Source: a virus
Lineage: Duplodnaviria > Caudoviricetes
Reading direction: 5' to 3' (one strand)
IMG/VR virus record: IMGVR_UViG_3300037067_027602
Location: 1 to 64,000 of that record
DNA: 64,000 nucleotides
Shown: positions 1,123 to 50,942 of the stretch, one piece after another
How positions within the stretch are numbered: position 1 is the first letter of the stretch
How the letters are laid out: each line of letters begins with the position of its first letter
The notes under the pieces: model-generated
Seen by the model: the letters and a program-made list of their open reading frames with translations, nothing else
Told to the model about the DNA's origin: nothing
Database searches by the model: none
Translations under genes and position numbers: made by a program

Positions 1123-1150
1123 TTGACAACCTTTCTATCTGTGATATTAT
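1123..1150 (+). promoter_or_regulatory. Sigma70-type promoter of tnpB1, likely leaderless transcript
   Basis: TTGACA-N16-TATTAT with TG extension, 7 nt before ATG 1158. Confidence 0.7.
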
Positions 1151-1157
1151 ATGAACT

Positions 1158-2303
1158 ATGATACTTACACGAACTATCAAAGTCAAGCTGGACGCCAAGG
1201 TCTCCGACGTGCGCCCCACCATCGCCGCCTACACGGCGGCGTACAACCTGGTCTGCAAGACCGGGTGGGAAAGCCGGGACTCCAACGGCGTCTCCCTCCA
1301 CGACAAGACCTACCAGGAATGCCGGGAGCTCCTCCCGTCCCAGCTGGCGGTGTCCGCCAGGATGAAGGCGACTGAATCCCTGGCGTCGGTCAAGGCTTTG
1401 ATGAGGAAAGGCCAGAAGGGCTCCTGCCCCGAGTCCAAGGAGATGAGCGTCCGTTTCGACAAGAACTCCTACAATGTCTGGTTCGACCGCGGGGAAGTTT
1501 CCTTCTCCACGGTGGACGGACGCAAGAAATCCTCGTTCTCCATGCCTCCGGCCTTCTCCAAATACCTCTCCTGGAAAAGGAAGTCCGCCGAGCTCTTCGT
1601 CAGGAAGGGAGAGGTGTTCCTCTCCATCGTCTTCGACAAGGAGACGGAGGATATTATCCCTTCCGGGAAAGTCGTCGGGGTCGACCGGGGCATCAAGAAG
1701 ATCGCCGTCACCTCCGACGGGAAGTTCTTCGGAGGGGGCGAGATCAAGAAGCAAGTCCTCAAGATAGGGAAGCTCAGAAAAGCGTTGCAGAGCAAAGGCA
1801 CAAAGTCCGCCAAAAGACACCTTCAGAAACTCGACAAGAAGGAGAACCGTTTCCGGCGCGACGTAAACCACAAAGTGTCCAAGGCCATCGTGGAAAGTTT
1901 GGAACCCGGGACGACCATCGTCCTGGAGGATCTCACGAACATCCGCGACAGCAGCAAGAATTTCAGAAAGGAACAACGGTTCCTCGTCAACAGCTGGAGC
2001 TTCTACCAGCTGGAGACGTTCCTGAAGTACAAGGCCGCCGGCCACGGATGCTTGGTGGTTTACGGGGATGCACGGTACACCTCCCAGAAGTGCTCCAAGT
2101 GCGGGCACACCGAGAAGGCGAACCGGAAATCCCAAAGCGTGTTCCTCTGCAAACATTGCGGCCACTCCTTGAACGCCGATTTCAACGCTTCCTTGAACAT
2201 TAAGCAAAACCACCTGGACGCTACATGCCATCCAGGCCGGGCCGCCGTCAACCGGCCCATCGTGGCGAGCCTAACGACCCAGCCGCAAGCCACAGCCCTT
2301 TAG
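1158..2303 (+). CDS. tnpB: RNA-guided endonuclease TnpB
   Basis: RuvC motifs VGVDRG, VLEDL, NADFNASLNI; Zn ribbon CSKC...CKHC; all three acidic residues present. Confidence 0.95.
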   Translation: MILTRTIKVKLDAKVSDVRPTIAAYTAAYNLVCKTGWESRDSNGVSLHDKTYQECRELLPSQLAVSARMKATESLASVKALMRKGQKGSCPESKEMSVRFDKNSYNVWFDRGEVSFSTVDGRKKSSFSMPPAFSKYLSWKRKSAELFVRKGEVFLSIVFDKETEDIIPSGKVVGVDRGIKKIAVTSDGKFFGGGEIKKQVLKIGKLRKALQSKGTKSAKRHLQKLDKKENRFRRDVNHKVSKAIVESLEPGTTIVLEDLTNIRDSSKNFRKEQRFLVNSWSFYQLETFLKYKAAGHGCLVVYGDARYTSQKCSKCGHTEKANRKSQSVFLCKHCGHSLNADFNASLNIKQNHLDATCHPGRAAVNRPIVASLTTQPQATAL

Positions 2304-3007: not shown

Positions 3008-3092
3008 AAAAAATTTTCCCGCGCGTTTGCATCCACGATTAGAGGGAGTAAATTTCCTCTTTCGGGGCTGACAACAACCAGAAACAGGAGGG
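3008..3092 (+). promoter_or_regulatory. Phage promoter plus AACCAGAAACAGGAG leader/RBS
   Basis: A/T tract, TTGCAT(3027)-N16-TAAATT(3049), then aaccagaaacaggaggg. Confidence 0.6.
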
Positions 3093-3097
3093 ATGAA

Positions 3098-3316
3098 ATG
3101 CCCAAGAAAAGCCGCGCCGCCAAAGTGGCGGCCAAGAAGAGGGACGTCGCCATGCGCTCCAGGGGGAAGTCGAACGCCTCCAGGGGCAGCTTCGCCAAGG
3201 CGGGCGAGGAGGAGATCAGGAAACGGGCCGCCGCCAAGGCGGGGGAGCTCCGGGCGAAGAGGATAAGGGAGCAGGTGTCGGACGCCCGCACGGGGGAGCC
3301 GGATGCCGAGGTTTGA
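3098..3316 (+). CDS. Small highly basic hypothetical protein
   Basis: Strong RBS; K/R/A-rich 72 aa. Confidence 0.7.
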   Translation: MPKKSRAAKVAAKKRDVAMRSRGKSNASRGSFAKAGEEEIRKRAAAKAGELRAKRIREQVSDARTGEPDAEV

Positions 3317-3503
3317 CCCTTGTGGAGGATGTTCTTTCCGTGATCCAAAAGACCATCGCCGCTGCAAGGCCGTGAGGCCGAAGATATTGTTCCATGGAGG
3401 GAGGCAGAGGCTTTGGTGCGATGAAGTGAAGGCCGGGTCTTTCTGCGCCTTCAGGAAACTTAACCTTAAATCTTTAGTTCTCCGGCTCGTCGGCCGGGGG
3501 TAA
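3303..3503 (+). CDS. Small Cys-rich hypothetical protein
   Basis: CGGC...C...C...C; tiles with neighbouring genes. Confidence 0.5.
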   Translation: MPRFDPCGGCSFRDPKDHRRCKAVRPKILFHGGRQRLWCDEVKAGSFCAFRKLNLKSLVLRLVGRG

Positions 3504-3523
3504 CCAAAAACAGGAGATAGAAA

Positions 3524-4656: not shown

Positions 4657-5138
4657 GCGACAAGTTCACCATATACACGGACGGTTCCTGCTACCCGAAC
4701 CCGGGAGGCCCGGGAGGGCACGCCGCCGTCATGGAGTGGAAAGGGGCGAGGAGGAGGGTCTCAGGCGGCTTCGCGGCCACCACGAACAACAGGATGGAGC
4801 TGCTGGCGGCGATTGCCCCTCTGGAGCTGCTGTCCATGAAGCCCGGCGGCATGGAGGGGCTGGAGGTGGAGGTCGTGTCCGACTCCAGATACCTCGTCGC
4901 CCCCTATACCGACGGCTACATCGCCGACTGGAGGAGGTTCAACTTCTCCGGCAGGCCGAACCGGGATCTCTGGCTGCGGCTGGAGCCCCTGGTGGGGAGA
5001 TGGAACCCCGTGTTCACCTGGGTAAGAGGCCATGACGGGCATCCCATGAACGAGCTTTGCGACAAGTACGCCCTGGAGGAGCGGCTGAAACCCGACCTTC
5101 CTCCCGATCCAGGGTACATACCAAAAAACAGGAGATAG
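4653..5138 (+). CDS. rnhA: Ribonuclease HI
   Basis: IYTDGSC.PNPGGPGG, TTNNRMELLAAI, SDSRY, NRDLW, WVRGHDGHPMNELCD. Confidence 0.95.
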   Translation: MSDKFTIYTDGSCYPNPGGPGGHAAVMEWKGARRRVSGGFAATTNNRMELLAAIAPLELLSMKPGGMEGLEVEVVSDSRYLVAPYTDGYIADWRRFNFSGRPNRDLWLRLEPLVGRWNPVFTWVRGHDGHPMNELCDKYALEERLKPDLPPDPGYIPKNRR

Positions 5139-7606: not shown

Positions 7607-8761
7607 CTAAAGGGCAGTGGCCTGCCCACGTCCCTTGCGAGACCGGGCTTCGGGGCGCGTTGACAGGCGCCCACCACTCCGTAGAATGGTAAATGTGGAG
7701 CGAACATTATGACTGGCGTTGGCATCGGCGTGCTCGACATGGCCGCAAGCGCAAGTGAAGAGGTGTCCCCTGCGGACACCTATCGCCCCGCACTTGCGGC
7801 AACGCTGCGACGTGTAGGCGGGGTTGACGTACTCGACCCCGAACCCCTTCCGTTGCGCCGCATTTGTACACGCAGACGTCATCTCCTTGTAGAACCACTG
7901 GCTGAGCTTGCGGTGGGTCCCCGCCCGTTTTCCGTCGCGCTTCTTGACCTGCTTTATCTTCAGGTCCTCGAAGACGAGGATGGCGTCGGGGGGAGCCCAC
8001 TTGCAGAGCTTCGCCGCGGTCTCCTTGCAGAACGTCCTGCTCCTGTTTCTCTGTTTCCGCCCCAGCCGTTTCAGGACGCGGCGCACCGACCTGGTGTCCG
8101 CCCCCTGTGCCTTCCGGGCGGCCAGCTTGCTTTGCAGCCGCTGGCGGGTCTTCCTCGTCCGCTCGTTCCGCACCTTGAGGGTGCGGCCCGAGACGAACAA
8201 AACTTTGTCCTCTGTGGAGGCCACCAGGGCGTTGGTCGCCCCGAGGTCGATGCCCACGGGATGGAGGTTCTTGGGTTCGGGGACTTCGAGGGTGACGCAG
8301 AGCGTCACCTTGCCGGAGCCCGTGACCACGATGGAGTCCCGGGACACGGCGTTCTCGAAGTCGTCCTTGGCGTAGTCGGGAACGATAAAGTCGAGCTTCT
8401 CACGGCCGTTCGGGGTGGAAATGGAAAGTTTCCCCTTCCCGGTGAAACTGAAGTCCTTGTTGAACAAGAACAACGCCGCCTCACGACGGAAGATGAAGGG
8501 TCTGTCCACTGGGTGTTTGTTCCTCTTCGCCGAGGAATAGGCTCCGGCGACGTTACGGATGGCGGAGCATTTCATCTGGGAAAGGAGAGTGGTTTCGACC
8601 GTGTGATAGACGGCGTGATGCAATTCCAAAGCCGACAGCGGCTCGCCGCCGTTGAAAGCGGTCTCGCTGATCGCTTTCTGGTAGCGGTTGTATTCGTGGA
8701 CGAGGTCGAGGACATTGTCCTTTTCCTTCACCACCAAAACGATTGTTCTTTGGATTTGCAT
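7607..8761 (-). CDS. tnpB: RNA-guided endonuclease TnpB
   Basis: VGIDLG, VFEDL, HADANASHNV; CRKC...CAC Zn ribbon. Confidence 0.95.
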   Translation of the reverse strand: MQIQRTIVLVVKEKDNVLDLVHEYNRYQKAISETAFNGGEPLSALELHHAVYHTVETTLLSQMKCSAIRNVAGAYSSAKRNKHPVDRPFIFRREAALFLFNKDFSFTGKGKLSISTPNGREKLDFIVPDYAKDDFENAVSRDSIVVTGSGKVTLCVTLEVPEPKNLHPVGIDLGATNALVASTEDKVLFVSGRTLKVRNERTRKTRQRLQSKLAARKAQGADTRSVRRVLKRLGRKQRNRSRTFCKETAAKLCKWAPPDAILVFEDLKIKQVKKRDGKRAGTHRKLSQWFYKEMTSACTNAAQRKGFGVEYVNPAYTSQRCRKCGAIGVRRGHLFTCACGHVEHADANASHNVRSTFTILRSGGRLSTRPEARSRKGRGQATAL

Positions 8762-8798
8762 ATTGACATTATATCATTAACGAGCTATAATGTCAATA
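8761..8798. promoter_or_regulatory. Palindromic bidirectional sigma70 consensus promoter
   Basis: tattgacattata-N12-tataatgtcaata gives TTGACA-N17-TATAAT on both strands. Confidence 0.85.
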
Positions 8799-16966: not shown

Positions 16967-17251
16967 TCAGGATCTCCTCTCCCTCAGCTTTTTCGGGGAC
17001 GGCGGGGGCACGAAGTTCAAACATCCATTGACAAACTCAGCGGTCCAAAAAACCACCAGGAACACGAGGATGGACAATTCGAACATCCTCCAGAAACCCG
17101 GAGACTCGAACCTAGTGCCCGCTAACAGGGTCTGCCAGAAAGCGGCCCCCCGGAAGTTAAAATAGAGGACAAGGGAGAGGATTGTGGCGCAGAAGAAGAT
17201 ATCGATCGCCATGCAGATGAGTTTCAGCAGCAAATTGAATATTTTCCTCAT
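16967..17251 (-). CDS. Two-TM membrane protein
   Basis: Two hydrophobic stretches; ATGA overlap with the upstream gene. Confidence 0.65.
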   Translation of the reverse strand: MRKIFNLLLKLICMAIDIFFCATILSLVLYFNFRGAAFWQTLLAGTRFESPGFWRMFELSILVFLVVFWTAEFVNGCLNFVPPPSPKKLRERRS

Positions 17252-18939
17252 CGCACGGCCTCATGGGCATCGGTGACGAACTCGGGGTGGGAGATGCCCT
17301 TGAGCACCTGCTCCAAAAACATGCGCCAATGCGGCAACTTGTGGTTCTTGCGTTGGGAATGGATGTTCTTGAGCGTCTTGTAGGACATGCACCATTCACG
17401 CCGCTGGAGGAAACCCTCGGGAAGGACGGACTTGACGTGCTCCAGCGGAGTGCCCGCGTTGACCATGTCGTAGATCTTGCTGGCGGTGCGCTCGTCGCAT
17501 GAACCAGGCTCGAACATAGCCCTGATGGTGGTAATCCCAAGCACCCCGGACCACAACACGTCCTTGTTGAGCGTATGCATTGTGCTATTCCCCGACCATA
17601 TGGCTTTGCCGTTTCTTCTCGTATACAAAGTTCCGTTAGGTACGCTTGCACAATATACCTTCCCGACATAATCTTCAAGGAAAATATTTCCTTTAGAGGT
17701 AGAAAACATTCTGGTTTTGTGAGGAGATACGCAATACACATCATGCCTAGGATACTTCATTTCGCGCTTCGTGATGTTCGATGATATTCCAATATTTCTT
17801 AAAAGCCTTTGGACGTCATCAGCCAACTGTTTTGACACAGTGCTATAAATTCCAGAATACTTTGTTCCGTCACCAGCAAATAAACCCTTCCAAACTTCCA
17901 TTTGAAGTTCTTTAGACCAAGAAAAAACATATTCTGGAATATGTTTATTTAAAACTTTCCCCAATCCTGAAAAAATGTTATAAAATTGCTTATTTGAAAT
18001 TATCCACCTGTAATGCTTGCATCCGGAAGAAGTGTTTCTCTTCATATCAGTTTTATGAACCTTAAAAGGGAAAGATTTCAAACACTCTTCTATCATTGTA
18101 ATACATGGGTTATCATCATTTTGACACACAGAAACATTATAATTCCTCTTGGCTTTCTCACAACTTCCTTCCGCAAGGTAGAAGCCAAGGAACCACGCCC
18201 ATTTTTTACTATCCAAATTAAGCTCAGGCCAATTTTTGACGCATTCCCTACTACCCGTATCCCAAATATAATTTTCTTCCGGTACATGAAAAATTTGAGA
18301 TGGATCACCATCTCTCCAATCCCCTATTTTAGGAATGAATATTTTCTTGTTGACGGCTTTTACTGCCTTGACTTTTTTAAATATATTCCATTCGCTATGT
18401 TTCATACAAACAATCAAATCATGTTCCTGAGTTACCAGTAAATCTATTTTTTTGTTTAAAATATGAACCATCGGTTTAGAATATCCAAACACCATTCTTT
18501 CTGTGGAAGCCTGATATTCCAAAGTCTTAGTATCTATATTCAAAGTAGCAAATTTGGCATTTTCTGGAACATCCTTAAATAAAAACCACCCCTTATCCGT
18601 CAAGGCCTCAGTATCTTCTGAAAAGCATGCGGACTGCTTCGTGCTGAGCCGATAAGTGTCAGCCTCCTGCCACCAGAACCTCGGTGCGGTGACATCAAGC
18701 CACATGACCATGGACTCAAGGAACTTGTTGTGGCCGCCGTCCATCGGGGCGAGCCGGGCGGTCAGCCTGTCAAGTTGATCCCTAGTGTTGTCGGGGAGGT
18801 CTCCGTAGTCGCGGAACGGCGTGGTGACGCCCTTGCTCAGCCCCAGGCCGAAGGCGGCGCTGCGGTAGCCGGCCTCCTCCATGACCTTGGCGACCATGAC
18901 TGGTTGATAAGCAACCTCTTTTTCTGTTTCCTGAGTCAT
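17248..18939 (-). CDS. ThyX-like (flavin-dependent thymidylate synthase-like) phage protein with intein
   Basis: GHNKFL, APRFWWQEADTYR, QSA|STMHT, LPEGFLQRR, QRKNHKLPHW. Confidence 0.75.
   Translation of the reverse strand: MTQETEKEVAYQPVMVAKVMEEAGYRSAAFGLGLSKGVTTPFRDYGDLPDNTRDQLDRLTARLAPMDGGHNKFLESMVMWLDVTAPRFWWQEADTYRLSTKQSACFSEDTEALTDKGWFLFKDVPENAKFATLNIDTKTLEYQASTERMVFGYSKPMVHILNKKIDLLVTQEHDLIVCMKHSEWNIFKKVKAVKAVNKKIFIPKIGDWRDGDPSQIFHVPEENYIWDTGSRECVKNWPELNLDSKKWAWFLGFYLAEGSCEKAKRNYNVSVCQNDDNPCITMIEECLKSFPFKVHKTDMKRNTSSGCKHYRWIISNKQFYNIFSGLGKVLNKHIPEYVFSWSKELQMEVWKGLFAGDGTKYSGIYSTVSKQLADDVQRLLRNIGISSNITKREMKYPRHDVYCVSPHKTRMFSTSKGNIFLEDYVGKVYCASVPNGTLYTRRNGKAIWSGNSTMHTLNKDVLWSGVLGITTIRAMFEPGSCDERTASKIYDMVNAGTPLEHVKSVLPEGFLQRREWCMSYKTLKNIHSQRKNHKLPHWRMFLEQVLKGISHPEFVTDAHEAVR
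17587..18627 (-). mobile_element. Intein (347 aa) with LAGLIDADG homing endonuclease
   Basis: Starts CFSEDTE, block B VTQEH, FLGFYLAEG and GLFAGDG, ends VYC..VPNG...WSGN|S; strongly AT-rich. Confidence 0.93.
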
Positions 18940-18975
18940 TTTCCTCGCTCCTTTTTTCTGGTTGATGCCCCGTAA

Positions 18976-19219: not shown

Positions 19220-19669
19220 TCAAACTTTCGTGATGGCGTTGTGGTCGTTGATGGCGTCCTGCAGATCGTTCACGAGATCCTGCGCCGTCACCCTGGCCAG
19301 CTCGACGTAGGAGTGATCCATCACCGGCTTGGAGAAGGTGTCGCCGCCCTCCCCGTAGTTGTGATGCCTCTCGGGCTGGCAGGGGATGGTCTTCAGGAAC
19401 GCCAGCGTAGCCTTCGCCTCGGACATCGCGGCGAGCTTGTCGGCCACGGGGGCGGAGCCACGGGCGATCCTCGCCTTCAGGTCGACGAGCCGGAGCTTGA
19501 GGGAGCCGAGCTCGCAGAACATCCCCTTGACGTCCATGGGGACGTCCACGCCCTCCTCGACCATGTTGTGGGAGGCGATCTCCTGCTGAAGCCTGGCTAC
19601 CTCGCCCGCCACCCGGTTCTTTTCCGTCATCGCCTTGTTGATGGACATCTTCTGTGACAGGTCTCTCAT
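19220..19669 (-). CDS. Coiled-coil hypothetical protein (DIP1984-like)
   Basis: MSINKAM.EKNRV...LQDAINDHNAITKV pattern. Confidence 0.6.
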   Translation of the reverse strand: MRDLSQKMSINKAMTEKNRVAGEVARLQQEIASHNMVEEGVDVPMDVKGMFCELGSLKLRLVDLKARIARGSAPVADKLAAMSEAKATLAFLKTIPCQPERHHNYGEGGDTFSKPVMDHSYVELARVTAQDLVNDLQDAINDHNAITKV

Positions 19670-19701
19670 GATTTTTACGCCCCGTTTTTGGTTGTTGCGG
19701 G

Positions 19702-19750
19702 AATTTACCACGCCGCCCGCATGATTGCAAGGCGGCGCGTGAAAATTTTT
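19702..19750 (-). promoter_or_regulatory. Phage promoter
   Basis: A/T tract, TTGCAA-N17-TAAATT, followed by aaccaaaaac leader. Confidence 0.6.
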
Positions 19751-23944: not shown

Positions 23945-23986
23945 TTTCCGTCTCCTGTTTAACCGCCCGAAGGCGGCCTGGTTGCA

Positions 23987-33469: not shown

Positions 33470-33505
33470 GGCTGGCTCCCCTATAAAAGTTTCTGGTTAC
33501 CGGAA

Positions 33506-33557
33506 AATATAGCGCCGCCAAACGACGGCGCAAGTCATCAAAGAAAAATATTTTTTT
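33506..33557 (-). promoter_or_regulatory. Phage promoter
   Basis: A/T tract, TTGCGC-N16-TATATT, followed by aaccagaaac. Confidence 0.6.
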
Positions 33558-35424: not shown

Positions 35425-36306
35425 TCAATTCCTCCCGAAAATTGTTGAACCGCGCCCTTCGCAGTTCTTCCCGTCCTCTTGCCTGTCCCCCCGGTAATTT
35501 CCCGGATACCAAGACTTGGCGTTCTCCTCAATCCTCTCCCTGGTCAACGTCCCGTCGAAGACCTCGACATCGTCAATCCCGGGCAGCCCTTTTTCCCTGA
35601 ACTCCTTGAGGAGCCCCGGGGAGAACTTCTCCCTTCTCTGCTCCAGCTTCTCCCTGGGGATGGGGACGGGCATGCCGCACTTCCCGCACCAGCGGTCCAC
35701 CTGGTCCTTGAACTGGTCGGGCGTCCTTTTCCACCAGCCCGGCTCGACCGGGAACCCGCCGGGGCCGTCGAAGATGGTGTCCAGCGCGTAGGCCACCTCG
35801 CAGAAAAACCCGCCTTTGTCGCCGATGGTGGGGCACCATGTCCTCTGGACCCAGCAGTCGTCGATCAGCCGCTTTTTCAACTCAGCGTCCTGGACGACGT
35901 CATTGATGGCGACGGTGATCGGCTGGTGCCGGCAGACTTTCCGCTGCTCGGCGTCGTGGGGGTTGTGGGCGACCATCCCGAACGTCGAGTCTATGAGCCC
36001 CTTGATGGAGTCGAACCGTTTCCCTCCGATGGTCCACAGCCCCATCCGTTGCCTGGGGTATTTGGACTTGATCAGGGTACACACCTCCTCGAACTCCGGA
36101 TGAAGCATGGGCTCCCCGCCAATGATCCCGATCCTTCCCGGGAAATCCTTCAGGGAATCCAAGGCCAGGGAAATCTTCTCCAGGGACATATGGAAACGCT
36201 GGTCGGGGCGGATGTGCCGGCTATGCCGGGAACAATACAGACAATTCATGTTGCAATGGTTGGTCACTTCAATGTGGCAGAACCAGGCTTCCGATATCGC
36301 TTTCAA
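35425..36306 (-). CDS. Radical SAM protein
   Basis: CNMNCLYC, GGEPMLHP, C-terminal Cys cluster. Confidence 0.9.
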   Translation of the reverse strand: MKAISEAWFCHIEVTNHCNMNCLYCSRHSRHIRPDQRFHMSLEKISLALDSLKDFPGRIGIIGGEPMLHPEFEEVCTLIKSKYPRQRMGLWTIGGKRFDSIKGLIDSTFGMVAHNPHDAEQRKVCRHQPITVAINDVVQDAELKKRLIDDCWVQRTWCPTIGDKGGFFCEVAYALDTIFDGPGGFPVEPGWWKRTPDQFKDQVDRWCGKCGMPVPIPREKLEQRREKFSPGLLKEFREKGLPGIDDVEVFDGTLTRERIEENAKSWYPGNYRGDRQEDGKNCEGRGSTIFGRN

Positions 36307-37127
36307 AATTTGGTCTCCATGGTTTTCCCCGCCTCCGCGATCCAGTCGATCCCGGGGGCGAGCATGTTGTTGACTACGTGGGTGGACAGGGACGGGGAGG
36401 GGCTCCACAAAGGGTATGCCCTTTCGTCGGACATGCCGAAACTCCGGTGCTTCCATGCCTGCCGGTAGTATGGATCCGGATCGTCCGGCCTGGAGTTGCG
36501 GGGTTTCGTCAAAGACAGCCACATCGAACAGTCGTGGTTGCCCTCGCTATAGCTCATCATCCTGTGCTTGCCTTGGCGGAAAGCTCTCGACGTGGCCATG
36601 AAAGTCAAGCAGGTCGAGGCCCGCTCCCGCCATATCCTACCATGGCGACCAAGGGGTTGCCTCAAGTTCGACTGGGTGAGCGGATTGTGCTGAGCGCTGC
36701 CATTGCTGTAGTCAGGATGGTCATACAGCGTGACGAACCCTTCCTCCATGGTGGTCCGCAAAAACTCCTCCGCCTCCTCCATCGCCCCCGGAAGATAGAG
36801 ATAGTCGTCCTCGGCCACGCATACCATCCCCTTCCAGCCATCCGGCACGGAATCTAGCTGGCGCCGGAACGTCGGGAGGTTCCCTATGCCGGGAGTCCTG
36901 ACGATCTCTAGGCCGACGTTGGAGCCGGAGAAGACTTCGTTGAAAATCTCTATGTAACCATCCGGGCAACCGTCCAGCATGACCTGCATGCTCGCCTTCA
37001 AGGAGCCAAGCCCGATCCGGAACGACTTGGCGCAAAGCCTGACAAGCCCTTCCTTGTCGCCGTCGAACACCGGCCTGTTGCCGGAGCTTTTGGGGCAAAC
37101 CCTGTATGTGATGAACAAATCCTTCAT
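36303..37127 (-). CDS. Glycosyltransferase (GT-A fold)
   Basis: EDDYLY, VTLYDHPD, STCLTF, PSLSTH. Confidence 0.8.
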   Translation of the reverse strand: MKDLFITYRVCPKSSGNRPVFDGDKEGLVRLCAKSFRIGLGSLKASMQVMLDGCPDGYIEIFNEVFSGSNVGLEIVRTPGIGNLPTFRRQLDSVPDGWKGMVCVAEDDYLYLPGAMEEAEEFLRTTMEEGFVTLYDHPDYSNGSAQHNPLTQSNLRQPLGRHGRIWRERASTCLTFMATSRAFRQGKHRMMSYSEGNHDCSMWLSLTKPRNSRPDDPDPYYRQAWKHRSFGMSDERAYPLWSPSPSLSTHVVNNMLAPGIDWIAEAGKTMETKF

Positions 37128-37139
37128 GAGGTTCTCCTG

Positions 37140-37181
37140 AAAAAGAGGCCGCCCCGGGATTTTGGGGATCCAGGGGCGGCC
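37140..37181 (-). terminator. Intrinsic terminator-like hairpin
   Basis: ggccgcccc/ggggcggcc stem with inner ggat/atcc pair, followed by tcttttt on the minus strand. Confidence 0.65.
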
Positions 37182-37228
37182 AAACCAGAAACAGGAGGGC
37201 GGTGTCTGGGGAACAAATCCGCTCACTG
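37140..37228 (-). ncRNA. Candidate ~90 nt small RNA or structured leader containing an anti-RBS segment
   Basis: Promoter upstream, 9-bp GC stem plus UCUUUUU at the 3' end, contains CCCUCCUGUUUCUGGUU. Confidence 0.5.
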
Positions 37229-37233
37229 ACCTG

Positions 37234-37262
37234 AATCTACAACCACCCCCCGCGATTGTCAA
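37234..37262 (-). promoter_or_regulatory. Sigma70-type promoter
   Basis: TTGACA-N17-TAGATT. Confidence 0.7.
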
Positions 37263-37269
37263 GCAAAAA

Positions 37270-38418
37270 TCAGACGGAAAGCAAAAAATCCCTCATTTTG
37301 ACGCAAGCCATGTCCCAGGTCCAGAGGCTCTCCATGGAGATCCTCGCCCTCTTGCCACGTTCCCTGGCGGCCGCCGGGTTGGCCCTCGCCTCCAGCATGG
37401 TCTCCACCAGGTGGTCGAAGCTGGGCTCGGCCCACTTCTGGCCATGGTACAGGGGGAGGTTGGGGGCGTTGGCCGGCCTGATGTCGACCAGCTTGTAGTC
37501 GAGGAGCCAGGAGTTGTCCTTGGTCATGTACTCCGTGTTGCCGCCCCAGTCCGTTGCGACCACGGGGACCCCGGCGGCCATGGCCTCGGAGGCGCACAGG
37601 TTCCAGCCCTCGCAGTGCGACGGGGCGAGGAGGCAGTCCAGCGACGTGTAGAACGACGGCATGTCCTCGCCGGGCAGCACGGAGCTCACCATGTACACCG
37701 GAGCGGTCTCCGCCCTGGATTTCCCGGTCTCCCGCCGGCACATCTCGACGGCGCGGGCGAGGGTCTCCGCCCCGCCCTTCTCGCCCCTAGCCCCGGCCTT
37801 GAGGATCAGGGCGACCCCGTCGTTTTTGCCGAAGGCCGTGAAATATGCCCTCAACGCCTCGAGCGGGCATTTGCGCTCGTTCCAGTCGATGTTCATTCCG
37901 AAGGAGAACACGCCATCCCTCTTCTGGAACATGGGCTCGACGCCGGGGTTGAACCTGGCGCAGTCCACCCCGTGCGGGACGACATGGACGTTCCTGGCGC
38001 CGGCCGCGGTGAACGTGCCCCTGTTGAACTCCGAGAAGACGACGACATGGTCCATCGCCCGAAGGGGGAGGAGCCATTGCTTCGGGACGCCGTCGGTCTC
38101 CCAGGTGGTGACGGCGACATGGACGTCCGCCAGGGGGTCTATCCCCCAAAGCTCGGCGGTGAGGTTGTAGGCCAGGATCTTCCTGGCCCCCTCCACGTCG
38201 GGGCGGACCTTCGAGAGGCGGTTGACGTCTTTCGCCACCTGGCCGATGCCCGCCGGCTCCTTCCAGAAGGAGAGCGGGGTCAGCCGGACGTCCACTCCGA
38301 GCTTGTCCAGGCCGATGACGTAGTTTCTGGTCGCCTCCCCGTAGCCGGAGGGGTCCAGGGCGGAGCCCGCCCAGCGGACCTGGATGGGCGGTCGGACGGT
38401 TTTGTCGATGTCTGGCAT
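37270..38418 (-). CDS. Glycosyltransferase family 4
   Basis: SGYG, TTWET, VVPHGVD, RK, EGWNL...EAMAAG.PVVAT. Confidence 0.92.
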   Translation of the reverse strand: MPDIDKTVRPPIQVRWAGSALDPSGYGEATRNYVIGLDKLGVDVRLTPLSFWKEPAGIGQVAKDVNRLSKVRPDVEGARKILAYNLTAELWGIDPLADVHVAVTTWETDGVPKQWLLPLRAMDHVVVFSEFNRGTFTAAGARNVHVVPHGVDCARFNPGVEPMFQKRDGVFSFGMNIDWNERKCPLEALRAYFTAFGKNDGVALILKAGARGEKGGAETLARAVEMCRRETGKSRAETAPVYMVSSVLPGEDMPSFYTSLDCLLAPSHCEGWNLCASEAMAAGVPVVATDWGGNTEYMTKDNSWLLDYKLVDIRPANAPNLPLYHGQKWAEPSFDHLVETMLEARANPAAARERGKRARISMESLWTWDMACVKMRDFLLSV

Positions 38419-38422
38419 GTTT

Positions 38423-40228
38423 TCAAATCTCCAAAAGGGTTGGTTTCGGGGAGGGGAGCGAGGAGTCGTGCCCCAGCGTCATGTCGAACAGTTTCATCCA
38501 GGCGTCGAGGAACGGCCCCCAGGCGTATTCCTTGGCCCTCTCCAGCCCGAGCCCGGAGAGCCGGGAGCGCAGCCTCGAGCCCGTCTCCAGGGCGGACTCG
38601 TCCCAGCCTGGCGAGGTCTCGTCCAAATAGCGGCGCCATTTCTTGACGAACCCGTCCTTGTCCTCCATGTACATCTTGTCGAGGCGCATGGCGAAATCCA
38701 GCTCGTCCACCAGGGCCCGCTGGGCGTTGATCCGGGGTTCAGTCATGAAATGCGCCACGCGGATCAGCTCGGCGCAATCGGCGCAGAAGTCCAGATGGGC
38801 GCTGTAGTTCGTGATGAGCATCGGGGCGCCGCAGGCCATCGCCTCGAGGGCAGGGAGACAATTGTGGACGGCTACTCCGGATACCGTGTAAGAGTTGTCA
38901 TCCTCCACCTCAAGGTTGTAAATATCCCCCTCGTATACACGGGAAGATTTGGCCGACACGATTCCCGGAGTAACGAAAGAGGGGCGGAACAGGCCATTCC
39001 CCACCTCCACGGAAGAAGCTTCCCTCCAGTCGAACCCCTCATCCCCAGGGTGGGAATACAGAAGATGTTTTGGGGTACATTCCAAAACGCCGTCATCAAA
39101 ACTAAGGACGGACAGTTCCCCGCAGTATCTTCTAGAGAAAGTTTCTGTCACTTTTTTTAGCCGACCGACATGTGTGACCACTTCTTCGCCGATGGTGACA
39201 TCCTCAATAGGCTTCTTTCCATCCTTGCATTCCACCATGCTTCCTGGAGGAAAACAGAATCCCTCCCCGGTGGTCGGCAACGCCCAAACGTCGAAAGACC
39301 CGATGATCCTCCCGAGGGTCTCGACGTCCACCCCCATGCCGACCTTCATGCCGCGCGGGAACACCAGCTTGTCGACCACGCCCTCCCTTCCCGCCAGCTC
39401 CACGAGATCCCATCCGATGTCGTCGGTGGCGGCGTGGATATAGAGGACTGTGTCCTCCTTGGCCGGGAAGCGGTGAAAGCCGGACAACCCGCCGCAGGCG
39501 CACTTGGCCGGCTCCTGCCCGAAGGCGATGGAACCGCAGTCCATGCAGGTGGAGCAGGCGGATGAGAACATGGAGAACGCCCGGATCAAGGCCGGGAGGT
39601 TCTTCCGCGGCTGGTTCCTCGCCACGGTGCCGACGATGAACTTGTCTCCGTTGGGGCAGATGGTGGCCCTGGTCCCAACCCTCTCGTCCGGGGACGGAGG
39701 TTTGAACACCGACAGGTCGACGCCGTGCGGGATCGCGGCCAGACGGCCCTTGTTCACGTTCGGGAAAGCCTTGGCGATCTCCTCCACGCCGTACTTGCCG
39801 TAGAGCACCAGCTGGTCGGCGGCCTGGAACACGTCCGCCCAGCGGCTGTAGATGGGGCCGGAGTCGATCGGGATGTAGAGGACCAGCTTGAACCTGTTCC
39901 TGAACTGCGACTTTGTGGCGGCGGTGACCATCCAGGCGTCGCCCACGGCGAGGACCAGGTCGGGCCGGAAACGCGAGCACACCTCGTCGAAGGTGACGTG
40001 GGCGTACTTGTCCTTCTCCCTCTCCTCCCCGTTGCCGTGCTTCGTCCGGCGGATGCCGTAAGGGACGGCCTCCCCGGAACCGTTGTCGAACCAGCCTATG
40101 ACCGCCAGCTCGTGTTTCCCCGACCCGGCGATCCTGTCGCAGATCTTCCGGATCACCGTGGCGAACCCCGTGTGGATGCGGGGACTGTCTCCCATAACTA
40201 GAATTCTCGGTTTCCTCGCCCAGGACAT
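38423..40228 (-). CDS. Glycosyltransferase family 4 with mini-intein and Cys-rich insert
   Basis: TGFATV, IPHGVD, RNQPRKN, GEGF|CLPALEAMACG. Confidence 0.92.
   Translation of the reverse strand: MSWARKPRILVMGDSPRIHTGFATVIRKICDRIAGSGKHELAVIGWFDNGSGEAVPYGIRRTKHGNGEEREKDKYAHVTFDEVCSRFRPDLVLAVGDAWMVTAATKSQFRNRFKLVLYIPIDSGPIYSRWADVFQAADQLVLYGKYGVEEIAKAFPNVNKGRLAAIPHGVDLSVFKPPSPDERVGTRATICPNGDKFIVGTVARNQPRKNLPALIRAFSMFSSACSTCMDCGSIAFGQEPAKCACGGLSGFHRFPAKEDTVLYIHAATDDIGWDLVELAGREGVVDKLVFPRGMKVGMGVDVETLGRIIGSFDVWALPTTGEGFCFPPGSMVECKDGKKPIEDVTIGEEVVTHVGRLKKVTETFSRRYCGELSVLSFDDGVLECTPKHLLYSHPGDEGFDWREASSVEVGNGLFRPSFVTPGIVSAKSSRVYEGDIYNLEVEDDNSYTVSGVAVHNCLPALEAMACGAPMLITNYSAHLDFCADCAELIRVAHFMTEPRINAQRALVDELDFAMRLDKMYMEDKDGFVKKWRRYLDETSPGWDESALETGSRLRSRLSGLGLERAKEYAWGPFLDAWMKLFDMTLGHDSSLPSPKPTLLEI
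38861..39256 (-). mobile_element. Mini-intein (132 aa, no endonuclease)
   Basis: Starts CFPPGSMV, block B CTPKH, IYNLEVEDDNSY, ends VHN|C. Confidence 0.93.
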
Positions 40229-41415: not shown

Positions 41416-42158
41416 GGCTTCGCCGCTTTCTTGGTTTTGGGGGGTTTGGCTTTTCTCGGCGGCACCGGAAAGAAAACGCTCTCGGCGATGGACTCGGACA
41501 CCAACGGGCGCAGCTCGTCGTCACGCCGCAACTTGACGTTCGCCTTTGTGATCATCTCCTTTTTGCGGATGTCCCCGGACAGCATGCCGAATTTCATGGT
41601 CTGGCAAAGCTCCGGCCAAGATTTGTCCCATGTGCCCTCCGAGAACGCAGTTTGGCGGTCGAGGGCCATGGCGATCATGGCGGCGTCCGCCTCATCGTCC
41701 GTGGCGAACGAGATGCCCGTCCTCTTCTGGGCGAGCAGGAGGTAGCCGGTGTCCTTTTTGACGCTGCCGTCGCCGAGAACCAGGAATTTCCAGCTGGTGG
41801 AAGGCATCGTGGAGAGCTTGACCGAGGACGCCCCCACGAAGATCTCCTCGATCTGGGAGATCATGAAAAAGTTTAGCACCCCGTTCAGCTCCGCCAGCTT
41901 CGTGATGTTGCTGGTCTGGGCGCTGAAGGCGTAGCCCTCGCGGACCACGGCCACGGAATACCCTGGCTCTGCGCGCAAAAAAAACTCCGTGAGGGTGGAA
42001 ACTATGTTTACCGGCGTCTTGATCGACCTGAGGACGCCATCGGCGATGTCGGTTGGAAAACGTTCGGACAACACCGGAATAGAAGACCCCCTCTTGATGA
42101 TGGACAAGGCCGCCCCTGTGATGGAGGCGTCGATGCCGACGATGTATTGCTCTGGCAT
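41412..42158 (-). CDS. RuvC-like Holliday junction resolvase
   Basis: VGIDASITG, REGYAF, LAEL.G, WK....G.G...K, DDEADA. Confidence 0.85.
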   Translation of the reverse strand: MPEQYIVGIDASITGAALSIIKRGSSIPVLSERFPTDIADGVLRSIKTPVNIVSTLTEFFLRAEPGYSVAVVREGYAFSAQTSNITKLAELNGVLNFFMISQIEEIFVGASSVKLSTMPSTSWKFLVLGDGSVKKDTGYLLLAQKRTGISFATDDEADAAMIAMALDRQTAFSEGTWDKSWPELCQTMKFGMLSGDIRKKEMITKANVKLRRDDELRPLVSESIAESVFFPVPPRKAKPPKTKKAAKP

Positions 42159-42206: not shown

Positions 42207-42980
42207 TCACACCGGGATGTCGTCCTCGGGGGGAGCGTCCTGATATTGTTGCTGCGGGGCGGCCGGGCGTCCGTATGGCTGTTGGGGCGGGCGCTGGTAT
42301 CCCTGGTGCGGGGGCGGAGGTTGTTGATAACCGCCCTGGGGATGCGCCGGCCGCTGCTGCGGAGGGGGCTGGCCCTGGTATCCGCCGCTCTGCCTGGTGG
42401 GGGTGTCGCGGTCGACGTCGGGGGGAGGGGGCTGTTGCCGCTGTTGATAACCCCCCTGTTGTGGCTGGCGCTGGCCGCCGTTGTTGTTGCCCTTGTTGCC
42501 GAAGAACATTGTCCCGGGAGGGCCCGCCATGAAGAAGACGAACTCGTGGATGATGGCGCCGCGCGCCTGGGGGTTGGTGTTCTTCCAGGGGGCGTACTTG
42601 CCGACGAGCTGGACCATGTCGCCGGGGTTGCACTGGTTGATGAACTCAAGCGCCCGGTCGCCGAAGACTTTGCAGGAGATGTAGGCCTGGCTTCTCTCCT
42701 CGGCCACATGCAGCCTGAACTTGGCGAACTGCTTGCCGTTCTGGGTCGCGCCCCACTCGATGGACTCGCGCCCCTGCATCTGCGTCTGGCAGATCTCGCC
42801 GATGAACATGCAGCAATTGACGCTGAAAAGGTCGCCTCCGCCGCCCTGCGCTTGCTGCTGGGGGGGTTGCTGTTGCGGGGGAGGCTGTCCCTGGTATCCT
42901 CCGCCGCGCTGTTGGTAGCCTCCCTGTTGCGGACGGGGCTGCTGGTATCCGCCCCCCTGGTCTTGGTAGCCCTGTGACAT
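42207..42980 (-). CDS. ssb: Single-stranded DNA-binding protein with Q/G/P/Y-rich arms
   Basis: OB core VNCCMFIG...GKQFAKFRL...YISCKVFG...GDMVQLVG; acidic tip EDDIPV; own RBS gaaggag. Confidence 0.8.
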   Translation of the reverse strand: MSQGYQDQGGGYQQPRPQQGGYQQRGGGYQGQPPPQQQPPQQQAQGGGGDLFSVNCCMFIGEICQTQMQGRESIEWGATQNGKQFAKFRLHVAEERSQAYISCKVFGDRALEFINQCNPGDMVQLVGKYAPWKNTNPQARGAIIHEFVFFMAGPPGTMFFGNKGNNNGGQRQPQQGGYQQRQQPPPPDVDRDTPTRQSGGYQGQPPPQQRPAHPQGGYQQPPPPHQGYQRPPQQPYGRPAAPQQQYQDAPPEDDIPV

Positions 42981-44081
42981 TTGACCCGCTCCTTCTGGTT
43001 CTTGGTTTAAAACCCCATACTGTACACCACGCACATCCGGGGCGCAAATAATTTTTTCCGCATTGTTCAACAATTTATGGATTTCCTCCGGCTCCATGGA
43101 CCCTATGTCCCTGGAGTCGGCGAACGGCAGCCTCAGCAGATCCACCCGCCCGAACATGGCCGCCACGGCCTTGTCGGAACCTTTCCTGCCGGCCTTGTCG
43201 GGGTCGAGGGCGAGCACGACGGTGGACGAGAGCCCCACGACCAGCTCCATCTGCTCCATGGTCATCCCGCTTCCCATGATTGCGACGATGTTTTCGATCC
43301 CTGCCATCCAGCATTTCCAGAGGTCGCAGAAACCCTCGACGACAAGGACCCATCCGGACTCCGCTATATGGGGTCTGGCCAGGTGCAGCCCGTAGAGGTT
43401 CCCTCCCCGGTCGCTGCCCTTCCCCTGCCGGTATTTTCCCGGGGCGTCCTCGTCCGCCACCATCCTGCCCGAGATGCCAACCAATGATCCATCCCCCGAC
43501 CTGATCGGGATCACCGCCCTGTTCGGGAACTCGTCGTGCATCCACGGGGTGTCCATCGAGTGGCAGGAGCCCACCTCGAACAAATCCAGGACCCAGTCCG
43601 GGAACCCCCTCTCGTTGAAATAGGAGTTCCTCCTGGATTTGCACCTGGCGACGAACTCCTCGCAAAGGTACTCGGTGGGGATGACCTCTTTCCTCGCCCT
43701 CTCCCCCCACAACGCCTCCGCGCATTTGGCGAGCGCCCCTCCGGACGCCCGTTTGTGGAAGACGCCGTCGTCGTCGACCCCGCAGAAATCCATGAGCCAA
43801 CGCAAAGCGGCGGGGAAATCCACGTCCATCAACGCCATCACCAAGTCTACAGCGTCGCCGTGCGCCCCGCCGCATTGGGTGTAGCACTTCCAATGGAAGC
43901 CCTGCCCTCCCTCGACGGAGCGGAGGTTGATGGCGAACGCCGTCGGGTTGTCCCCGCCATGGATGGGGCATGGGCTGCGCAGCTCCGTCCCGTCGTCCTG
44001 GCAAATCTGGACTCCCAGCTCGGCGCAGAGGGCCCGGCCGTCGAGGTTCGCCATCAGCTCGTCTTTAAGCTCGGCGTTCAT
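42207..44081 (-). CDS. dnaG: DnaG-type primase reading in frame into SSB
   Basis: CPIH...CYTQC Zn finger, RAVIPI, GISGR, TOPRIM VVEG..D and DPDKAG; no stop before the SSB ATG. Confidence 0.88.
   Translation of the reverse strand: MNAELKDELMANLDGRALCAELGVQICQDDGTELRSPCPIHGGDNPTAFAINLRSVEGGQGFHWKCYTQCGGAHGDAVDLVMALMDVDFPAALRWLMDFCGVDDDGVFHKRASGGALAKCAEALWGERARKEVIPTEYLCEEFVARCKSRRNSYFNERGFPDWVLDLFEVGSCHSMDTPWMHDEFPNRAVIPIRSGDGSLVGISGRMVADEDAPGKYRQGKGSDRGGNLYGLHLARPHIAESGWVLVVEGFCDLWKCWMAGIENIVAIMGSGMTMEQMELVVGLSSTVVLALDPDKAGRKGSDKAVAAMFGRVDLLRLPFADSRDIGSMEPEEIHKLLNNAEKIICAPDVRGVQYGVLNQEPEGAGQMSQGYQDQGGGYQQPRPQQGGYQQRGGGYQGQPPPQQQPPQQQAQGGGGDLFSVNCCMFIGEICQTQMQGRESIEWGATQNGKQFAKFRLHVAEERSQAYISCKVFGDRALEFINQCNPGDMVQLVGKYAPWKNTNPQARGAIIHEFVFFMAGPPGTMFFGNKGNNNGGQRQPQQGGYQQRQQPPPPDVDRDTPTRQSGGYQGQPPPQQRPAHPQGGYQQPPPPHQGYQRPPQQPYGRPAAPQQQYQDAPPEDDIPV
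43019..43057 (-). promoter_or_regulatory. Internal promoter for ssb within the primase-SSB linker
   Basis: A tract, TTGCGC-N17-TACAGT, then aaccaagaaccagaaggag. Confidence 0.55.
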
Positions 44082-49574: not shown

Positions 49575-49580
49575 TTAGGA

Positions 49581-49651
49581 CCTCCTTTTTCTGGTTGACA
49601 AAAATATAGCGCCCCCCGGCGCGCTTGCAAATGGCGTTAAAAAATTTTTTT
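49581..49651 (-). promoter_or_regulatory. Promoter and leader of the replication operon
   Basis: A/T tract, TTGCAA-N16-TATATT, aaccagaaaaaggagg. Confidence 0.65.
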
Positions 49652-49654
49652 CAC

Positions 49655-50942
49655 AGGATTTGGCCGAGGAAGCCCCGACCCTTCAGGGCGGGGAGGAATC
49701 GGCCAGCCATCTATGACATTTCTTTCAACAACACTTGACATTTTAATCTCCTCGTGATATTCTTACAGCATGAAGACGCAAAGAACAATAGCCCTGGTGA
49801 TAAAAGATTCCAAAAACCTCGTCGGGGTTGTCATGGAATACAACCGCTACCAGAAAGCGATCAGCGAGACCGCTTTCAACGGCGGCGAGCCGCTGTCTGC
49901 CTTCGATCTTCAGAAGGCCGTCTACCACACGGTTGAGACCACTCTCCTTTCTCAGATGAAATGCTCCGCCATTCGTGGCGTCGCCTCGGCCTACTCGTCG
50001 GCCAGAAGCAACGGACGCCCGGCCACCAGGCCGTTCATCTTCAAGCGTCCGGCGGCGTTGTTCCTTTTTAACAAGAACTTCAGTTTCACCGGCAAAGGCA
50101 AACTTTCCATAACCACCTCCCAAGGCAGGGAGAAACTCGATTTCATCGTCCCGGACTACGCCAAGGCCGACTTCGACCAAGCCGTGTCCTACGACAGCAT
50201 TACGGTCACAGGTTCCGGGGCGGTCAGGCTTTGCCTGACGCTCGAAGTCCCGGATCCCAAATCCATCACCCCGGTCGGCATCGACCTCGGAGCCAACAAC
50301 CCGCTCGTCGCCTCCGTCGAGGGCGGGGAAGTTTTGTTCGTGTCCGGATCCGCGTTGGCGCAGGCCAACCGCCGGACGAGGAAGACCCGCCAGCGGCTGC
50401 AAAGCAAGCTGGCCGTCCAGAAGGCACAAGGAAAAAGCGCACGGAGCGTGCGCCGATCCTTGAAACGGCTGGGACGGAAACAAAGCGATAGAAGCCGGAC
50501 GTTCTGCAAACAGACCGCCGCCGAGCTCTGCTCGTGGGCTCCCAAGGATTCCGTGCTCGTCTTCGAGGATCTGAAATTCGACCAGGTCTCCAAGGGCGAC
50601 AGGAAACGCAAGGGAACCCACCGCAAACTCAGCCAGTGGTTCTACGGGCAGATGATCCAGGCGTGTTCCAGCAAGGCCGAGAGGCTCGGGTTGGGGGTGG
50701 CTTTCGTCAACCCCGCCTACACCTCCCAAAAATGCAGGAAATGCGGTCTGATTGGAACTCGTTCCGGTCATTCTTTCTCCTGTGTCTGCGGCCATTCCGA
50801 GCACGCCGACGTCAACGCATCGCACAACATCCGGCGAAACTACGCCGTCCTACGGGACGGTGGGCATCAGTCAGCATGCCCCGAAGCTCGGCCTCGCAAG
50901 AGGCGCGGGCAAGCCACAGCCCTTTAGGGCGTGGTAGCTGAC
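49655..50942 (+). mobile_element. IS200/IS605-family TnpB-only element 3 (intergenic)
   Basis: Inserted after TCAC; left-end hairpin ccccgacccttcagggcgggg; right end differs from element 1 at 1 of the last 34 nt. Confidence 0.9.
49770..50927 (+). CDS. tnpB: RNA-guided endonuclease TnpB
   Basis: VGIDLG, VFEDL, HADVNASHNI; close paralogue of 7607..8761; promoter TTGACA-N17-TATTCT. Confidence 0.95.
   Translation: MKTQRTIALVIKDSKNLVGVVMEYNRYQKAISETAFNGGEPLSAFDLQKAVYHTVETTLLSQMKCSAIRGVASAYSSARSNGRPATRPFIFKRPAALFLFNKNFSFTGKGKLSITTSQGREKLDFIVPDYAKADFDQAVSYDSITVTGSGAVRLCLTLEVPDPKSITPVGIDLGANNPLVASVEGGEVLFVSGSALAQANRRTRKTRQRLQSKLAVQKAQGKSARSVRRSLKRLGRKQSDRSRTFCKQTAAELCSWAPKDSVLVFEDLKFDQVSKGDRKRKGTHRKLSQWFYGQMIQACSSKAERLGLGVAFVNPAYTSQKCRKCGLIGTRSGHSFSCVCGHSEHADVNASHNIRRNYAVLRDGGHQSACPEARPRKRRGQATAL

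Follow-up and report, generated by a model that had tools for sequence, protein, structure and literature searches.

Background

The phage RNAs known to block ribosome-binding sites, c4 and sar, are each dedicated to a single operon in a temperate phage. Processing of a longer transcript yields c4, which acts on an immunity operon, and sar is transcribed opposite its single target. Bacterial systems offer further points of comparison. The type I small RNAs that are derived from 3' UTRs and have a promoter of their own, for instance DapZ and MicL, are Hfq-dependent and conserved, and in the icaR mRNA of Staphylococcus aureus a stretch of the 3' UTR complementary to Shine-Dalgarno (SD) sequences (anti-SD) pairs with the SD of the same mRNA. 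The small RNA of the Shiga-toxin late transcript, named StxS, is a parallel to the 6S RNA of phage lambda.

As summarised in a review, the c4 antisense RNA of phages P1 and P7 (Citron and Schuster 1990) pairs with the ribosome-binding region of a phage mRNA and blocks its translation (PMC12197685). [quoted passage not shown] 30 in PMC12197685). The PeSL cassettes of T4-like phages are composites of stem-loop, promoter and SD that mediate recombination (PMC4122927, PMC2839356), and their stem-loop lies upstream of the promoter (PMC4122927).

Here we analyse an intergenic unit for which a preliminary description had proposed a trans-acting RNA that could silence a set of phage genes by occluding a ribosome-binding site (RBS) common to them. 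The window, that is, the whole stretch of DNA analysed, covers the first 64 kb of an IMG/VR virus record of 156,497 bp (~61% GC), the completeness of which is estimated at 89%.

The phage and the gene neighbourhood

DNA of this phage is present in groundwater and landfill metagenome DNA runs from three studies. Four sequencing runs (groundwater, landfill) contain the phage; all of them are DNA runs, and no RNA run is listed. Contigs of the locus from these four runs are 100% identical with zero variants, and hence they carry no covariation signal. Over 2.1 kb (36300-38420), an identical phage was assembled from groundwater (2022) and landfill (2018) metagenomes in the three studies, and one landfill run (X4) also contains short contigs of ~80-88% identity, showing that a near relative exists. 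A distant blastn search of the phage records in GenBank with positions 36000-39000 gave no match.

All genes around the unit lie on the minus strand. Their order is PD-(D/E)XK nuclease, glycosyltransferase with a Hint (intein) domain, group-1 glycosyltransferase (GT1), an intergenic region of 142 nt, GT2-like glycosyltransferase, radical-SAM, Methyltransf_24 methyltransferase, GT2 and PHP-domain polymerase. Homologues of the GT2-like protein begin at the same MKDLFITY, which supports the ATG at 37127 as its start. The glycosyltransferase with the Hint domain (38423-40228, minus strand) looks intein-interrupted, as does a ThyX-like gene with a LAGLIDADG domain (17248-18939, minus strand).

A short unit between a promoter-like site and a terminator

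On the minus strand the preliminary description had placed a TTGACA-N17-TAGATT promoter and a GC hairpin with a U tail, and every one of these elements was recovered at its position (Table 1). The promoter-like site has hexamers and spacing of sigma-70 type, lies between genes and, with a match of 10/12, is the top-scoring site in 30-45 kb. Genome-wide, 13 of the 18 sigma-70-like sites with a match of at least 10/12 are intergenic, compared with ~16% of the DNA; this enrichment between genes suggests that such sites are real features of the phage. Downstream of the -10 region follow ~47 weakly structured nt that end in a 17-nt stretch complementary to a phage leader, hereafter the anti-leader seed. 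The hairpin with its U-tract then has the form of an intrinsic (Rho-independent) terminator on the minus strand, and no T-tail is found on the plus strand. It is the strongest among six phage terminators compared, and a simple terminator scan had missed it because of one internal U-C mismatch. Moreover, the fold of the full 126-nt leader (-47.7 kcal/mol, z = -2.9) beats all 200 shuffles.

Table 1. Features of the unit and of the leaders to which its seed is complementary. Positions are those of the window.
Feature	Position	Strand	Remark
Upstream gene, GT1	37270..38418	-	mRNA would end at the terminator of the unit
-35 hexamer TTGACA	37257..37262	-	8 nt past the GT1 TGA stop (37272-37270)
-10 hexamer TAGATT	37234..37239	-	17-nt spacer; putative RNA start near A37227, from spacing only
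Unit A, diverged tandem copy of 37161..37092	37173..37257	-	P ~0.002
Anti-leader seed CCCUCCUGUUUCUGGUU (= CCCTCCTGTTTCTGGTT in minus-strand layout)	37183..37199	-	1 nt before the terminator hairpin
Terminator hairpin, 35 nt, 9 + 4 bp stem (13 bp), 7-nt loop	37147..37181	-	-27.4 kcal/mol including tail
U-tract UCUUUUU (DNA TCTTTTT)	37140..37146	-	expected 3' end shared by the ~88-nt RNA and the mRNA of the upstream operon
SD CAGGAG (37139-37134), spacer AACCTC and ATG 37127 of GT2-like gene	37125..37139	-	start as in homologues
Downstream gene, GT2-like glycosyltransferase, 274 aa	36303..37127	-	
Leader and SD of 72-aa basic ORFan (ATG 3098)	3076..3092	+	perfect target, exact 17-mer
Leader of 190-aa gene (ATG 3524)	3502..3518	+	14/17
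Leader of 191-aa gene (ATG 5144)	5120..5136	+	AAACAGGAG in common; 1-nt bulge needed
Leader of intein-bearing ThyX-like gene (ATG 18939)	18947..18963	-	1-nt bulge needed
Leader of Rad52-like gene (ATG 23944)	23948..23962	-	9 contiguous nt
AACCAGAAAC, 29 nt before PHP-domain polymerase gene (ATG 33469)	33489..33498	-	right after hairpin and TATATT
Leader and SD before in-frame internal ATG (42980) of primase ORF	42986..43000	-	8 nt plus GGAG
Leader of 466-aa gene, function not known (ATG 49574)	49580..49596	-	15/17; right after hairpin and TATATT

The layout from promoter to terminator fits a discrete non-coding RNA of ~88 nt. Since the mRNA of the upstream operon would end at the same terminator, the same sequence would also be carried in its 3' UTR; and as this GT1 operon mRNA has no earlier terminator, the minus-strand RNA is expected at least as its 3' end. 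The statement that the interval contains no credible ORF was upheld with a caveat, because three small ORFs are open in it: the frame of the downstream gene, which stays open upstream to 37262, a 30-codon TTG ORF at 37216-37124 (minus strand), and a 10-codon plus-strand GTG ORF that starts at 37202. Their codon scores are negative throughout and GC3 bias is lacking, compared with +0.2 to +0.4 per codon for real and neighbouring genes.

Elsewhere in the window, three ORFs of ~380 aa carry a near-consensus promoter, TTGACA-N16/17-TAT(T/A)(A/C)T, just 6-7 nt before the ATG and look leaderless (1123-1158, plus strand; 8796-8761, minus strand; 49735-49770, plus strand). The copies at 8761 and 49770 share a long inverted similarity (74-95%), and 8763-8796 reads as a perfect 12/12 promoter on both strands.

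The seed complements a recurring leader motif

An exact 17-nt complementarity between the RNA and the leader at 3076-3092 had been claimed, and it is confirmed: the plus-strand form of the seed, AACCAGAAACAGGAGGG, occurs exactly only at 3076-3092 and 37183-37199, whether the window or the full 156-kb record is searched. With up to 3 mismatches the 17-mer has 4 matches, compared with 0.21 expected, and the leaders that had been named as near complements are all present, with pairings of different extent (Table 1). The core of the motif, the 9-mer AACCAGAAA, has five copies in the window where 0.32 are expected, a count that none of 100 shuffles reaches. It is absent from the rest of the record. 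All five copies are intergenic, and four of them are in sense orientation, 22-29 nt before an ATG (3098, 18939, 33469 and 49574), the copy at 37183 being the only antisense one. Versions with one mismatch precede 3524, 42980 and other starts, and the AAACAGGAG part is found before both 5144 and 23944. The 17-mer is the consensus form of a phage leader that recurs, composed of AACCAGAAAC plus AGGAGGG, and GUUUCUGG is a part of the seed that lies outside the anti-SD.

The identity between the copy at 37183 and that at 3076 ends exactly at the edges of the motif, with unrelated flanks, a pattern more in keeping with selection for the motif than with the copying of a fragment. Judged from its sequence, the element is real and non-random. 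Across IMG/VR the exact 16-mer has 26 matches, which by a rough estimate is about the chance level, and the match in one distant relative (L019) sits within a coding region of an AT-rich phage.

The gene behind the perfect target encodes a Lys/Arg/Ala-rich protein (3098-3316, plus strand). It looks coding (GC3 0.90, +0.40 per codon) and, as no homologues were found among 5.8 billion proteins, it is classed as an ORFan. Several of the leaders come after a GC hairpin, and at 33498, 49596 and 19693 a -10-like TATATT/TAAATT is located 6-8 nt upstream, so that the leader motif may be the very 5' end of those transcripts.

These cassettes have a composite structure of their own. At 33489-33531, 49580-49625 and 19669-19740 (all minus strand) a GC hairpin sits within the spacer of a weak sigma-70-like promoter, its T-rich tail doubles as the TATATT/TAAATT -10, and AACCA(G/A)AAA starts 6-8 nt on, in the manner of PeSL-like terminator/promoter/leader cassettes. 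At 42980-43047 (minus strand) a TTGCGC-N17-TACAGT site and the leader AACCAAGAACCAGAAGGAG precede the in-frame ATG (42980) inside a primase ORF of 624-688 aa; past this ATG lies the Gln/Gly-rich C-terminal part of the ORF, and the internal start may give a second product.

Pairing potential of the seed

In the predicted RNA of 88-89 nt the seed is mostly unpaired (unpaired probability ~0.6), and ~5 kcal/mol would open it as a whole; its CCCUCCU part is 80-90% unpaired and UUUCUGG is weakly paired. The predicted duplex of the seed with the 3098 leader reaches -33.2 kcal/mol. Duplexes of -19 to -25 kcal/mol were computed with the leaders of 42980, 49574, 33469, 18939, 117716, 126601, 122984, 3524, 5144 and 23944, compared with just -14.9 kcal/mol for the SD downstream of the unit itself. 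The seven target leaders tested are accessible as well, requiring 1.4-6.7 kcal/mol to open.

Whole-length RNAduplex, run with the 47-nt 5' part against start regions of 60 nt, does not discriminate in this GC-rich genome, and contiguous complementary stretches were therefore counted instead. At least 9 contiguous complementary nt are found in 11 of 145 start regions, compared with 3.3 in shuffles that keep the anti-SD CCCTCCT (P ~0.01), and a complementary match of at least 14 nt is reached by 0.4% of such shuffles. The unit thus combines a seed predicted to be accessible with above-chance complementarity to start regions, as would be expected of a trans-acting base-pairing small RNA.

Origin of the unit and its relatives

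Unit A, which runs through the promoter spacer and the -10 box and takes in the 5' half of the RNA, aligns with the hairpin 3' arm, T-tract, RBS and first ~12 codons of the GT2-like gene (37161..37092). Only 0.2% of dinucleotide shuffles score as high as this alignment, and the figure for windows drawn at random from the genome is also 0.2%. The blocks that both copies have in common include AATC.CGGGG, TTCAGG, TCA.TGA, GGATTTGTTC and GGTTTG, and the upstream copy appears to bear insertions, one of 16 nt (CCGCCCTCCTGTTTCT, with 14 nt inside the seed) and another that makes up the 5' arm of the hairpin. The stretch 37092-37257 (minus strand) reads as a ~94-nt diverged tandem duplication that comprises the region before the GT2-like gene and its first codons. 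The hairpin 5' arm resembles an insertion of 13 nt, complementary to a 3' arm that already existed, and a template-switch event may have produced it.

The upstream copy is closer to the codons of its own phage than to those of a related phage (L030), and the duplication is therefore taken to be recent. The unit looks young, given that it consists in part of a duplicated beginning of the downstream gene; the perfect 17/17 could consequently reflect youth and not selection, which weakens the argument for selection. The duplication also shows how promoter, terminator and seed could have been assembled.

L030, a 1,084-bp JGI contig, is the nearest relative compared for the downstream gene and encodes a GT2-like protein of 74% amino acid identity. 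Its gene overlaps (ATGA) an unrelated 197-aa ORF, leaving no intergenic region. The first 80 positions of this contig, which belongs to a related landfill-type phage, hold a stop codon, a GC hairpin and TCTTTTTATTTT, followed by the RBS and ATG of the 197-aa ORF; this ORF has no homologue in the phage analysed here, and the terminator runs straight into the RBS with no promoter between. A further homologue (P0002, 71% identity) is found on a 3.2-kb ENA contig. Four IMG/VR phages (L031-L034) carry GT1 at ~40% amino acid identity. Three of them have no intergenic gap after GT1, and the gap of ~75 nt in L033 has neither motif nor terminator. The leader motif gave only chance matches with 3 mismatches in these four phages, and it is not used there. 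The promoter-to-terminator unit is accordingly absent in all five relatives compared (L030 and L031-L034). Searches of IMG/VR with single proteins (GT2-like, GT1 and PHP polymerase) found no relatives, and neither did an alignment-based search of IMG/VR and GTDB genomes.

Proposed mechanism

We consider a trans-acting anti-leader RNA, or the same sequence borne by a 3' UTR and acting between 5' and 3' UTRs, to be plausible and unproven, with a probability of roughly 0.4. The unit would be a young, lineage-specific non-coding transcription unit, in which host RNA polymerase would start at the sigma-70-type promoter right after the GT1 stop codon and stop ~88 nt on at the strong intrinsic terminator. 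The mRNA of the upstream operon would end there too, and its 3' UTR would include the anti-leader. The 17-nt complement of the consensus leader would be exposed immediately before the terminator hairpin, and by pairing with target leaders and their SD sequences the RNA would block binding of the 30S subunit. The putative target leaders precede the starts of a gene set in the replication and nucleotide-metabolism region. Among them, the 3098 leader would be hit hardest, and those of 42980, 49574, 33469, 18939, 3524, 5144 and 23944 less so. Activity of the promoter, accumulation of the RNA and repression of translation through pairing are inferred.

In favour of the trans-acting RNA in the preliminary description are the architecture, the predicted accessibility of the seed, the above-chance complementarity and the lack of a coding signal; the absence of the unit in the relatives compared speaks against it, and so does the fact that the fully matched target is an ORFan. 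The role as a temporal switch is pure conjecture; the near-consensus promoter would fire early, alongside its supposed targets, so that such a switch is not obvious. A more complete scenario can be proposed only tentatively, and taken as a whole we regard it as less likely than not. According to it, the tandem duplication of a gene start recently gave rise, in a lytic-type phage, to a dedicated anti-leader RNA, and the ~88-nt transcript, which is also the operon 3' UTR, co-represses a replication and nucleotide-metabolism regulon through the common leader and SD.

If true, a large phage of lytic appearance would have a simple means of switching off an entire regulon, and the retention of one identical 5' leader by unrelated genes would be accounted for. 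Moreover, a unit apparently born from a local duplication would offer an uncommon glimpse of a regulatory RNA coming into being.

Alternative explanations

The unit may instead be a scar of an operon junction. The hairpin would then be the terminator of the primase-nuclease-glycosyltransferase operon, the promoter would restart transcription of the five-gene glycan module by way of read-through, and the anti-leader would be a by-product of local duplication and recombination with no function in trans; the locus would be an ordinary operon junction with a coincidental relic. The tandem copy in unit A and the absence of the unit from the relatives compared agree with such an origin, as does the resemblance of the recurring hairpin/promoter/leader cassettes to PeSLs. 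A hairpin leading straight into RBS and ATG with no promoter between is found at 42158 and in L030 as well, and this recurrence suggests that leaky internal terminators are normal here. However, exact motif edges and a 17/17 match to the consensus would not be expected from a by-product when the working leaders themselves differ at 2-3 positions. No other cassette has the same hairpin or flanks, so that no donor is visible, and it would be much for 125 nt to acquire, without selection, a perfect anti-leader together with a near-consensus promoter and the strongest of the terminators compared. We hold the scar to be the main rival, possible though less likely than the anti-leader RNA. A control in cis is distinctly less probable in our view. 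Here, in read-through transcripts, CUCCUG (37197-37192) would reach across the hairpin base to pair with CAGGAG, the SD of the GT2-like gene, and lower translation. The fold forced to form this helix equals the free minimum (-47.3 kcal/mol), with a pair probability of ~0.37 and the SD mostly paired, so that sequestration of the SD is possible. Such pairing needs only 6 of the 17 nt, however, and gives no reason for the exact complement of AACCAGAAAC; a local hairpin would sequester the SD equally well without any anti-SD, and in L030 the gene lacks a leader altogether and is expressed through translational coupling. The preliminary description had offered a cis attenuator through the same CUCCUG/CAGGAG pairing as its alternative. 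As a transcription attenuator it falls away, since there is no competing antiterminator fold, and what is left of it is the thermodynamically possible sequestration of the SD.

A riboswitch or transcription attenuator was likewise rejected: folds free of the terminator are 16-23 kcal/mol weaker, no Rfam family reached the gathering threshold in the window, and at E up to 10 the matches over 36900-37500 were of chance level, with no riboswitch family among them. The unit might also be a leader under antitermination control, like lambda pR'-tR', with the short RNA as the default product, read-through into the glycan genes dependent on a phage factor, and any activity in trans secondary. The order of promoter, short transcript, strong terminator and genes is that of the Shiga-toxin late transcript. 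We nevertheless judge it quite improbable, because it leaves the 17-mer unexplained and the locus has no put-like structure and no Rfam match, and because no Q-family antiterminator (PF06530, PF03589) was found in the 156-kb record (89% complete). Least credible of all is a function on the plus strand, in which the 17-mer would be a true leader and RBS for the 10-codon micro-ORF (GTG 37202), or part of a transcript antisense to GT1. The layout of hairpin, AACCAGAAAC and AGGAGG does mimic real gene starts. However, no plus-strand promoter-like site was found in 30-45 kb, and the sole start past AGGAGG is the GTG at a spacing of 3 nt, compared with 6-9 nt at real leaders. The micro-ORF, which the preliminary description had named as something that would refute it, finds no support in its codon score, and the 494-aa plus-strand ORF, also negative in codons and with no Pfam hit, was discarded as a shadow of GT1. 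Together with the homologue starts at MKDLFITY, the lack of a plus-strand promoter and the negative ORF scores point to the minus-strand RNA as the relevant molecule.

Comparison with known systems

The predicted anti-leader RNA shares with c4 that it is a phage-encoded small RNA pairing with phage mRNA away from its own coding site. Over 36900-37500, however, the C4 model of Rfam has no match even at E up to 10, and in contrast to c4 the candidate has its own promoter and terminator, a seed for the leader of several operons, and no lysogeny context. Compared with sar, its putative targets are 4-34 kb away and share only a motif of 9-17 nt with it. The arrangement of the Shiga-toxin small RNA is similar in that a promoter and a short terminated transcript lie directly before a gene block and the short RNA can act in trans, but no Q-type gene was found here, the size is different and there is no sequence relation.

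Of the composite cassettes in this phage, the sense ones at 33498 and 49596 fit the PeSL layout of stem-loop, sigma-70-like promoter and SD. The unit itself departs from it, its order being promoter, inverted leader motif, stem-loop and SD. An arrangement as in icaR would result from a hypothetical transcript running from ~43010 to the terminator at 37146, which would hold both a leader (42986-43000) and the anti-leader; however, the best match (3076) is on another strand and in another operon. With the small RNAs derived from 3' UTRs the unit shares a promoter at the end of the upstream coding region, a terminator common with the mRNA, and a seed just 5' of the hairpin. By these comparisons the unit would fall into no described family, and it appears to resemble c4 (P1/P7) and sar (P22) in mechanism and the 3'UTR-derived small RNAs in layout.
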